Part shown: positions 920 to 56,590 of the stretch, piece after piece
Numbering within the stretch: position 1 is the stretch's first letter
How the letters are laid out: the number at the start of each line of letters is the position of its first letter
Assembly: GCF_003334815.1 (NCBI RefSeq)
Contig: NZ_QOWO01000020.1
Source: Escherichia coli
GTDB lineage: Bacteria > Pseudomonadota > Gammaproteobacteria > Enterobacterales > Enterobacteriaceae
Reading direction: 5' to 3' (one strand)
DNA length: 64,000 bases
The notes under the pieces: model-generated
What the model was told of the DNA's origin: nothing
The model's input: the letters and a program-made list of their open reading frames with translations, nothing else
The model's database searches: none
Position numbers and translations under genes: made by a program

Positions 920-955
920 CAAAGGCTGCACACAGGCAGCCTTTGCTATTTTTTA
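920..955 (+). terminator. intrinsic terminator downstream of yeaQ
   Basis: stem caaaggctgc/gcagcctttg followed by ctatttttt. Confidence 0.6.
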
Positions 956-964
956 GAGGTGACG

Positions 965-1039
965 TTACCACCATCCCAGCTCAGTGCCGAGTACGACAAT
1001 AATCGCCACACCCATCATAATAATCGTTGTTTTTTTCAT
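965..1039 (-). CDS. yoaJ: small membrane protein YoaJ, 24 aa (MKKTTIIMMGVAIIVVLGTELGWW)
   Basis: manual translation of minus strand; below the ORF-track size cutoff; matches remembered K-12 small protein. Confidence 0.6.
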   Translation of the reverse strand: MKKTTIIMMGVAIIVVLGTELGWW

Positions 1040-1041
1040 CT

Positions 1042-1140
1042 TTATGCTCCCGGGGCAGCATAGCCGCCAATAAAAAACCATGCTAAAAATACGACCGCTG
1101 TAATGAAGATTACAACCGGAAAAATAATACCGATTCGCAT
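1042..1140 (-). CDS. yoaK: small membrane protein YoaK, 32 aa (MRIGIIFPVVIFITAVVFLAWFFIGGYAAPGA)
   Basis: manual translation of minus strand; lies between yeaP stop and yoaJ. Confidence 0.6.
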   Translation of the reverse strand: MRIGIIFPVVIFITAVVFLAWFFIGGYAAPGA

Positions 1141-1172: not shown

Positions 1173-2198
1173 TCAGGAATGTAGCGCTGGATGCGCGACA
1201 AAAGGTGTTTTCTGTTTGTGTTTTTTCTCCTGATACATCGCAATATCGGCAGCATGCAGGGCACTGTCTGCATCGGTTGTTTCAGGATCGACTTCTACTA
1301 TGCCAAGACTGGCACCGGGATAATACAAATCAACATCACCTAAGTGATATTCTCCACGTATTTGCTGCTGAATGCGTTCTCGCAGCGACGAAATATCCGC
1401 ATTCTCGTTGTTTAGTGAAACAACTAAAAACTCATCACCGCCGAGACGACCAATAACTTCGCCATTTTGCTGGAGCGTATTAAGGCGCTCGCCAACCTGA
1501 ATGAGAAACAGATCGCCACTATTATGACCAAAACGATCATTGATTAATTTGAAGTTATCCAGATCGATAAACGCGATCATTATCTTATGGTTAAGATGCC
1601 GGGCGAGGGAAAACAGTGTCGTCAGATTTTCAAAAATCGCCCGCCGATTCGGTAGCCCGGTTAACGAGTCGGTATACGATTGCGCAATCAGCGCAGCATT
1701 GGCTTCGCGCAGCTGTTCAACCAGTGCCTCTTTTTGAATATATTGTGCAATCAGTCCGGCGAATAACTGTAAAACCTGTTCCGCGCGTTCACTCCACTGG
1801 CGCTTCTCACTGCTGGCGGCGCAAAGCGTGCCATAGAATGATCCATCCGGTAAGTGAATTGGCGTGCTCAGAAATGTGGTGATGCCAAGATTGCGTGCCG
1901 CAATACAGTCACCCCAACGGTCGGGGACTTCATCGCTGAAAAAGCAGTTTTCATCAATGGCGCGTTTGCATAACGAGTAATCCCACGAGACGGTAAAATT
2001 CTCCGGGATGTACATTTTCTGGCTGTTACGGGCAAACATAATATGCTGCAGGCGCGCTTCGACATCCACTTTGGTCAGGTAGGTTGATTCCATATCAGTG
2101 ACCATTTCCAGCATCTCCAGAAGCTGTCGGACCAGACTTTCCAGTGACTGTTCTTTGGCAAGGGATTGCGAGACGCGGGCGATAATCTGATCTGACAC
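1173..2198 (-). CDS. yeaP: diguanylate cyclase, GAF-GGDEF (DgcP), 341 aa with GTG start
   Basis: ORF 1173..2327 contains RLGGDEF; start trimmed to GTG at 2196-2198 to match remembered 341 aa protein (MSDQIIARV...). Confidence 0.85.
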   Translation of the reverse strand: MSDQIIARVSQSLAKEQSLESLVRQLLEMLEMVTDMESTYLTKVDVEARLQHIMFARNSQKMYIPENFTVSWDYSLCKRAIDENCFFSDEVPDRWGDCIAARNLGITTFLSTPIHLPDGSFYGTLCAASSEKRQWSERAEQVLQLFAGLIAQYIQKEALVEQLREANAALIAQSYTDSLTGLPNRRAIFENLTTLFSLARHLNHKIMIAFIDLDNFKLINDRFGHNSGDLFLIQVGERLNTLQQNGEVIGRLGGDEFLVVSLNNENADISSLRERIQQQIRGEYHLGDVDLYYPGASLGIVEVDPETTDADSALHAADIAMYQEKKHKQKTPFVAHPALHS

Positions 2199-5561: not shown

Positions 5562-5730
5562 CGTGGTTTCCTTGCCAAAAAATAATAAGCCTGCTTACTT
5601 TACGCTTGCTGCAGGAAGGAAGTAGAAAATCTTTACGTTTTTTGCATAAAAAATCAGGCGAACTGTCATCAAACTGCCATTTGTGCACGCTAACAATAAC
5701 GTGAAAACAGCTATCTCCCGGGGGCATGCT

Positions 5731-5835
5731 ATGAACGATCAAATGTTTGTCGAGACACTGATTATCACGTCATCGTTTTTTGCCATTGCTGTTGTACTGG
5801 TTTTGTCCGTTCTTCTTATCGAACGGACCGGCTAG
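5731..5835 (+). CDS. yoaI: small membrane protein YoaI, 34 aa ([34 protein letters not shown])
   Basis: manual translation; below ORF-track cutoff. Confidence 0.6.
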
Positions 5836-6339
5836 TTACGCAGTGCGGCGGAAATTGACCAGTTCTGGTTGCGCAATGCGCAAATAATCCGCGGTTTTCA
5901 AAATAACGGATTTATCCAGCATGCCTGCATTGAAGGCGATTTCATCAAATCGTTCGAAGAGTAGAGGGTCGGCAACCAGTTTGAGTTTTGGATGGAAGCT
6001 GAAAGGGGGGATCGCGCCGAAGACACAGCCTGTGAGTTCATCGACTTCCGCCGGGCTGGCCAACGAAGCGCGTAATCCGCCTATATGGCTGGCGAGTTGG
6101 CTCAGATCGGCCTGTTGATCGGCTGCGAGGATCGCCAGAACATGTTGATTTACGCCATTGCCTTTGACTTTACATACCAGTGCCTTAGCACCCTGGCCTA
6201 GAGCGGTGCCACGAATTTCTGACACCGCTTCACATTTACCTACCGCTTCATGGGTAACGACGCGGAAGTCAGCACCTTCTTGTGATAATAAAGCGATTAA
6301 CCGCTGATGCGTCACGCTTCCTTTAGCCATTTCAGTCAT
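5836..6339 (-). CDS. yeaK: YbaK/ProX-type aminoacyl-tRNA deacylase YeaK
   Basis: ORF track 167 aa. Confidence 0.85.
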   Translation of the reverse strand: MTEMAKGSVTHQRLIALLSQEGADFRVVTHEAVGKCEAVSEIRGTALGQGAKALVCKVKGNGVNQHVLAILAADQQADLSQLASHIGGLRASLASPAEVDELTGCVFGAIPPFSFHPKLKLVADPLLFERFDEIAFNAGMLDKSVILKTADYLRIAQPELVNFRRTA

Positions 6340-56494: not shown

Positions 56495-56590
56495 CTACGC
56501 CTGTCAGGCCTATTCGACTCCTGCAATGTATTGAATTTGCATAGTTTTATAGGTCGAATAAGGCGTTCACGCCGCATCCGGCGTGAACAA
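56495..56590. repeat. RIP-type BIME (REP, IHF-site core, REP) between cho and nadE
   Basis: gcctgtcaggcctat ... tgcaatgtattgaatttgcatag ... ggcgttcacgccgcatccggcgtgaac. Confidence 0.6.

Follow-up and report, generated by a model that had tools for sequence, protein, structure and literature searches.

Three small membrane protein genes in the dgcP region

The DNA analysed here is a 64-kb stretch of the Escherichia coli chromosome (64,000 nucleotides; hereafter the window), in which the gene order reads yeaR, yoaG, yeaQ, yoaJ, yoaK, dgcP (yeaP), yoaF, yeaO, nimT, nimR, yeaL, yoaI, yeaK and dgcJ. Three of these genes, yoaJ, yoaK and yoaI, correspond to tiny hydrophobic open reading frames (ORFs) that a preliminary description had picked out from the letters of the sequence, placing the third of them between yeaL and yeaK, where the annotated gene order indeed has it. 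The ORFs are genuine and lie at the coordinates claimed for them (Table 1), as judged from their translations, from RefSeq (which names them 'protein YoaJ', 'YoaK family small membrane protein' and 'small membrane protein YoaI' in genomes 100% identical over the segment) and from NCBIfam equivalog profiles, the cut-offs of which are all passed. YoaJ matches NF011343 with 60.4 bits (cut-off 54, E = 1.1e-16) over profile positions 1-24 of 24, YoaK matches NF033821 with 69.1 bits (cut-off 32, E = 1.8e-19) over positions 1-32 of 32, and YoaI matches NF041475 with 79.8 bits (cut-off 45, E = 1.1e-22) over its full length; in addition, Pfam PF28021 ('YoaK') is recorded for YoaK relatives. The window ORF at 1042-1140 is the type member of the YoaK family (NF033821/PF28021) and follows its model from end to end with no difference, and the YoaJ ORF likewise matches its family (NF011343) over the full length with no difference. 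The three ORFs are thus almost certainly the E. coli small inner-membrane-protein genes yoaJ, yoaK and yoaI, which are already annotated and experimentally confirmed, so that finding them here is a rediscovery and not a report of new genes.

Table 1 Positions of the small genes, their putative signals and their phage relatives
Feature	Position	Strand	Description
Hairpin between convergent yoaJ and yeaQ	920-945		Terminator-like on the plus strand; stem conserved across genera
yoaJ	965-1039	minus	24 aa, MKKTTIIMMGVAIIVVLGTELGWW followed by a stop; from translation, RefSeq and NF011343
yoaK	1042-1140	minus	32 aa, MRIGIIFPVVIFITAVVFLAWFFIGGYAAPGA followed by a stop; from translation, RefSeq and NF033821
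Shine-Dalgarno-like GGGAG for yoaJ	1047-1051	minus	Built into the final Pro-Gly-Ala codons of yoaK; 7 nt separate it from the yoaJ ATG
Shine-Dalgarno-like GGTGA for yoaK	1145-1149	minus	In the 32-nt dgcP-yoaK spacer; GG invariant in a 13-locus alignment
dgcP (yeaP)	1173-2198	minus	GAF-GGDEF diguanylate cyclase; RefSeq; Pfam GAF_2 17-155, GGDEF 175-330
Predicted Pho box CTGTCATCAAACTGCCAT	5663-5680	plus	50 nt upstream of the yoaI start codon
Shine-Dalgarno-like GGGGG for yoaI	5720-5724	plus	6 nt before the yoaI ATG; from sequence
yoaI	5731-5835	plus	34 aa, small membrane protein; from translation, RefSeq and NF041475
HK106 YoaK-family ORF	JQ086369 30461-30559 (L033 3001-3099)	minus	104 nt after cI, before hicAB
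Phage-type YoaK ORFs	L030 3001-3105, L031 3001-3099, L034 2501-2599, L036 2546-2650, L041-L095

Two other elements of the window deserve mention. Its left edge (1-98) falls within an IS186/IS421-type element, which interrupts yeaR and has a terminal repeat (...caacccttaagttagcgcttatg) that reaches to about position 75. This junction recurs in 452 complete E. coli genomes out of 5426, and strain 720632 carries an IS421 transposase at the yeaR site with a different sequence just inside the repeat. Towards the other end, a pair of minus-strand matches to the ES036 (CssrF) sRNA family RF02751 (gathering score 37.6), at 56506-56548 (42.9 bits) and 63652-63694 (55.5 bits), are the sole Rfam matches in the window.

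Hydropathy and conservation of the peptides

ORF length alone is no evidence of coding at this scale, because the first 7 kb of the window already overlap with 127 ORFs of 20 aa or more. A ranking of the window's ATG-initiated ORFs of 20-50 aa, 358 in number, by best 19-residue Kyte-Doolittle segment puts YoaK first (2.79), YoaI second and the YoaJ-containing ORF fifth. The third rank is taken by a 38-codon ORF (MIVLVIIVAICFSFRL...) that lies in another frame inside dgcP (1424-1540, minus strand) and is probably a chance reading frame. The preliminary description's reading of yoaJ, yoaK and yoaI as genes for membrane peptides of one helix each, easy to overlook, is supported.

Of 5426 complete E. 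coli genomes, 5419 contain the segment, and the yoaK and yoaJ reading frames are both intact in the 23-24 loci that were collected through DgcP orthologs from other Escherichia species, Citrobacter, Enterobacter, Lelliottia and Pseudenterobacter. Over this set, yoaK has a dN/dS of 0-0.08 where the synonymous distance can be estimated, with dN at or below 0.12 in every comparison, and yoaJ one of about 0-0.32; the synonymous sites, meanwhile, are near saturation. The variable alignment columns fall mostly on third codon positions (positions 1/2/3: 11/8/30 of 31 codons in yoaK and 13/9/21 of 23 codons in yoaJ), and 28 of the 56 residues never vary in the alignment of YoaK+YoaJ concatenations, among them charged residues as well as Gly, Pro and Trp. 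In YoaJ these comprise K3, T4, T5, A12, G18, G22 and W24 (K35, T36, T37, A44, G50, G54 and W56 of the concatenation), within a layout consisting of an N-terminal basic Lys-Lys pair, one hydrophobic helix and a C-terminal G-x3-G-W-W. YoaK carries the family-invariant M1, G4, F7, P8, A15, W21, F22, G26 and Y27 and has the family's length (~32 aa), single hydrophobic helix and core, M-[RK]-x-G-x2-F-P ... W-F-x3-G-Y-A. By these comparisons, yoaK and yoaJ are under strong purifying selection across the five genera.

The abundance of short ORFs, together with the place of YoaK among the more weakly expressed small proteins of the initial identification (10.1101/511675), could be taken to mean that yoaJ, yoaK and yoaI arose by chance, or that only the act of translating them matters, in a leader-like or coupling role, with the peptides themselves being functionless. 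Such a reading is contradicted by the conservation of amino acids where synonymous sites are near saturation and by the 28 invariant residues, and the retention of yoaK-yoaJ in Salmonella without the upstream gene (see below) and the detection of tagged, membrane-associated proteins also speak against it; it is extremely improbable; by the same slim residual probability, we regard chance ORFs as excluded.

Organization of the probable dgcP-yoaK-yoaJ unit

The preliminary description had placed yoaK and yoaJ back to back and 3 nt apart, downstream of and in the same orientation as yeaP at a distance of 33 nt. Adjacency and orientation both stand, whereas the two spacings are coordinate differences and have to be corrected by one nucleotide each: 2 nt (AG, 1040-1041) separate the yoaK stop codon (TAA, 1042-1044) from the yoaJ ATG (1037-1039), and a 32-nt spacer lies between the dgcP stop codon (TGA, 1173-1175) and the yoaK ATG (1138-1140). 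Stop and start of the two small genes are 2 nt apart (+2) in Escherichia, Citrobacter and Salmonella, abut (0 nt) in Enterobacter, Lelliottia and Pseudenterobacter, and overlap by 4 nt (-4) in Raoultella/Klebsiella-type loci. Moreover, the CCN-GGR-GC context of the yoaJ Shine-Dalgarno-like site is conserved over 13 aligned loci. Because the yoaJ ribosome-binding site would fall within the terminal codons of yoaK, and just 2 nt separate the end of one frame from the beginning of the next, translation of yoaJ may well be coupled to that of yoaK.

[quoted passage not shown] This unit converges with yeaQ on a hairpin that folds with -18.9 kcal/mol as minus-strand RNA (z = -2.7) and whose stem has changed on both arms between genera (GGCTGCC/GGCAGCC versus GGCCACC/GGTGGCC); it is a probable bidirectional terminator for yoaJ and yeaQ. 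Scanning for promoters revealed no convincing one of yoaK's own inside the unit: the one minus-strand match, at 1166-1139, ends at the yoaK start codon, and the total number of matches was below the shuffle expectation. None was seen upstream of Salmonella yoaK either. Given the Salmonella arrangement described below, yoaK-yoaJ would be co-transcribed with dgcP in E. coli, yet may have, or be able to acquire, a promoter of their own.

Association with diguanylate cyclase genes across genera

Linkage of the small genes to dgcP is frequent without being required. The gene in front of yoaK is an ortholog of dgcP in Escherichia, Citrobacter, Enterobacter, Lelliottia, Pseudenterobacter and Raoultella/Klebsiella-type loci. 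In Salmonella, dgcP is absent and an intact yoaK-yoaJ pair lies between yoaF and yeaQ (L028 3891-4176, L029 3987-4272); the yoaF-yoaK spacer measures 195 nt there, and a stretch of ~60 nt immediately before yoaK remains alignable to the 3' end of Citrobacter dgcP, which suggests that the cyclase gene was deleted. Other loci have only one of the two small genes or neither. In Kosakonia cowanii (L023 4129-4206) and Enterobacter sp. EA-1 (L027 4124-4198), the dgcP ortholog has yoaJ but no yoaK behind it; the Candidatus Symbiopectobacterium locus has neither yoaK nor yoaJ; and in Buttiauxella brennerae (region 1383-2635), a YoaK-like gene unaccompanied by yoaJ (L037 2537-2635) lies 11 nt 3' of a MASE5-GGDEF gene, the product of which is a diguanylate cyclase of a different architecture from the GAF-GGDEF protein DgcP. 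Since YoaK and YoaJ are not always paired, as the yoaJ-only and yoaK-only loci attest, an obligate heterodimer of the two is unlikely.

These neighbourhoods bear on the possibility that diguanylate cyclases have a dedicated accessory in YoaK, alone or together with YoaJ, which as a membrane peptide would tether or regulate soluble DgcP and localise its c-di-GMP output. The recurrence of yoaK behind dgcP orthologs in several genera, the Buttiauxella gene behind a cyclase of another build and the lack of a membrane segment or domain among the Pfam matches of DgcP are all consistent with such a role. However, the linkage could be no more than synteny inherited by closely related genera, at least 50 phage or prophage copies of the family lie behind a repressor gene and not a GGDEF gene (see below), and no report of a two-hybrid experiment with YoaK or YoaJ against YeaP/DgcP was found in the literature. 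Furthermore, Salmonella keeps yoaK-yoaJ though dgcP has been lost, and since the pair is under purifying selection there, its role is not merely to serve DgcP. YoaK and YoaJ are therefore not strictly dependent on DgcP, and a dedicated cyclase accessory is an unlikely description of YoaK.

YoaK relatives in phages and prophages

Homologues were sought with an artificial YoaK+YoaJ concatenation, followed by a profile of paired concatenations that was run against 1.84 billion representative proteins and retrieved 55 representatives at E <= 0.001; the YoaK/YoaJ family is small. Some divergent members of the YoaK family are found in prophages, directly 3' of a gene for a CI-type repressor and in the same orientation. 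In lambdoid phages, and in prophages from E. coli, Klebsiella, Serratia and Citrobacter hosts, the ORF after such a gene encodes a YoaK-family peptide of 31-34 aa (Table 1); the distance from the CI-type repressor gene is 12-190 nt in HK106, mEp234, mEp506, a Klebsiella phage, Serratia and E. coli prophages and dozens of IMG/VR contigs. E. coli YoaK is 61% identical over 31 residues to the ORFs of HK106, mEp234 and mEp506 (tblastn E = 2e-5) and 71% identical to that of the Klebsiella phage (tblastn E = 2e-6); 19 of 32 residues are identical between YoaK and the phage ORF, a number to be compared with 200,000 composition-preserving shuffles, none of which exceeded 14. The HK106 and mEp234 phage records have no feature annotated under the YoaK match, and among the 5426 E. 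coli genomes PGAP labels the phage-type ORF 'YoaK family' in 6.

A scan of IMG/VR yielded 105 viral contigs with a YoaK relative, 80 loci of which were kept; 28 of these have an S24-type CI repressor upstream and about 20 have a 131-aa HTH_3/Phage_CI_repr repressor in that position. A further 25 are host-type dgcP-yoaK loci at the edges of provirus calls and do not count as phage genes. In one group of Klebsiella-type provirus contigs (L097 623-3102 and 22 similar loci, L098-L119), the contig ends exactly at the yoaK stop codon and dgcP is preceded, at a distance of 266 nt, by a gene for a tyrosine integrase; here a prophage has probably integrated beside dgcP, leaving dgcP-yoaK as host flank inside the called provirus boundary.

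The phage copies vary mostly at third codon positions (mean pN/pS 0.28) and pass the NF033821 cut-off. None has yoaJ beside it, none of the peptides matched a PHROG family, no PADLOC-DB 2.0 family was hit at E <= 1 by two phage YoaK homologs, and no mention of phage-borne homologs was found in the literature. The spread of the family into phage immunity regions and beside a second type of GGDEF gene thus appears to be undescribed in searchable papers.

In phage lambda, the slot directly after cI is occupied by rexAB. The phage YoaK homologs share with rexA-rexB their position and orientation directly after the repressor gene but differ from RexA and RexB in being 31-34-aa single-helix peptides, with no similarity to them and no PADLOC match. 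This placement behind CI-type repressors in phages, prophages and dozens of IMG/VR contigs raises the question of whether YoaK is at root a peptide of phage-host conflict, expressed by the lysogen for superinfection exclusion, abortive infection or a toxin-like purpose, with the chromosomal yoaK being a domesticated or ancestral copy of related membrane activity. No terminator-like site was found between cI and the ORF in HK106, and the phage copies evolve as coding sequence within the bounds of the family model, as such a function would have it. On the other hand, a position after the repressor gene is suggestive only, no PADLOC defence model or PHROG family was matched, no toxicity is mentioned for YoaK over-expression in PMC10470546, and chromosomal yoaK is a core gene (the 5419 genomes above) in a non-phage neighbourhood. 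An origin in phage-host conflict is, in our assessment, improbable, somewhat more so than a dedicated cyclase accessory.

A predicted Pho box upstream of yoaI

The third gene lies apart from the other two and has been characterized in more depth. A search with the Pho box pattern CTGTCAT-N4-CTGTCAT, allowing at most 1 mismatch, returned the site upstream of yoaI as the sole match in the 64-kb window, against 0.02 expected by chance, and this predicted box (Table 1) fits the reported PhoB dependence of yoaI transcription (PMC11429745). YoaI would thus be made from a PhoB-activated promoter marked by the box, and the protein has been found to rise post-transcriptionally at low Mg2+ (PMC11429745; review PMC12648545). 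The translation contains S26, V27 and E31, the residues given as invariant in PMC11429745; with these residues, the upstream Pho box and a full-length match to NF041475, the window ORF shows no difference from YoaI as described.

Ribosome profiling, another of the suggested checks, has in effect been carried out for this gene: YoaI was detected by translation-initiation profiling as well as by western blot and membrane fractionation, and a two-hybrid assay with EnvZ was positive (PMC11429745). According to the published work, YoaI binds EnvZ and stimulates EnvZ-OmpR signalling, for which Glu31 is required (PMC11429745; review PMC12648545), and it has been described as linking PhoR-PhoB to EnvZ-OmpR (PMC11429745). 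In the mechanism put together here, YoaI from this locus would likewise bind and stimulate the osmosensor kinase EnvZ through its cytoplasmic Glu31.

YoaJ and YoaK as membrane peptides

The remaining checks put forward in the preliminary description, epitope tagging and membrane localisation, find their counterparts in published experiments: chromosomally tagged YoaK is detected on immunoblots, where it has served as the reference for a weakly expressed small protein (bioRxiv 10.1101/511675), HA-MBP-YoaJ is integrally membrane-associated and co-immunoprecipitates with RseP (PMC4597795), and YoaI was localised by the fractionation mentioned above. From this analysis or from the literature, YoaJ and YoaK are translated, membrane-inserted single-helix peptides. 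YoaJ has an N-in/C-out (type II) topology, experimentally confirmed according to a passage of PMC4597795 that cites Fontaine 2011; for YoaK, an N-in/C-out orientation is predicted, as its N-terminal end carries an Arg and its C-terminal end no charge.

The concatenation search also returned rare apparent fusions of YoaK and YoaJ (52-70 aa), most of them singletons from one contig, which were rejected as evidence of a functional fusion. Those of the E. coli type (P0001, P0003, P0013 and others) require two compensating frameshifts within homopolymers and have the look of errors in sequencing or assembly, and in four Enterobacter-type fusions of 57 aa (P0005, P0007, P0011 and P0014) a sense codon (K, Y, Q or E) replaces the yoaK stop. 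A fusion would, moreover, invert YoaJ relative to its reported topology.

Purified RseP cleaves both YoaJ and YoaK, both of which are assigned to 'class II' (PMC10470546), and the literature describes the cleavage of YoaJ as inefficient; in vivo, cleavage is inconsistent between tags and was not seen at chromosomal RseP levels (PMC10470546). In diamide-treated cells YoaJ is up-regulated, as stated in a passage of PMC12542507 citing Hemm 2010, and PMC9769844 lists the functions of yoaK and yoaJ as unknown. At the levels of the window and of its peptides, no Rfam match at the gathering threshold to a type I toxin-like element (of the Hok or TisB kind) or to an RNA family occurs near 900-1200 or 5600-5900, and no PADLOC-DB 2.0 defence family is hit at E <= 1 by E. 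coli YoaK, YoaJ or YoaI.

Small membrane proteins such as MgrB and AcrZ regulate larger membrane proteins, namely PhoQ and AcrB, respectively. YoaK and YoaJ share with MgrB-PhoQ, AcrZ-AcrB and YoaI-EnvZ regulators their size, single transmembrane helix and stress-regulated transcripts, but have no sequence similarity to MgrB, AcrZ or YoaI, so that the resemblance is one of kind and not of family. By this analogy, YoaK and YoaJ might be small binding partners or modulators that act inside the membrane through helix-helix contacts with a larger membrane protein, and the intramembrane protease RseP would be able to remove them; that they modulate such a protein is a tentative proposal, which we consider less than evenly probable, if better placed than either a cyclase accessory or a phage-conflict peptide.

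Significance of the locus and of the YoaK family

In summary, the account that combines three known genes, a dgcP-yoaK-yoaJ transcription unit, translational coupling of its last two genes, a guess at membrane modulation and a PhoB-driven yoaI is, as a whole, very probably the best explanation of the locus, and the recovery of yoaJ, yoaK and yoaI indicates that reading sequence alone can find genuine genes of 24-34 codons. Beyond E. coli, YoaK could represent a small Enterobacterales family of ~32-aa membrane peptides found in three settings, namely as a core chromosomal gene behind dgcP, usually with YoaJ, behind the GGDEF gene of Buttiauxella, and as lysogen-expressed cargo behind lambdoid CI, a proposal that we make with low confidence. 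What the family's phage and GGDEF neighbourhoods offer is a modest lead and not a discovery; they present YoaK homologs as recurrent cargo of prophage immunity regions. If the phage copies carry out superinfection exclusion or manipulate a host membrane sensor, chromosomal YoaK probably targets the same host component, and this, if true, would provide the first functional handle on an orphan small protein of E. coli.
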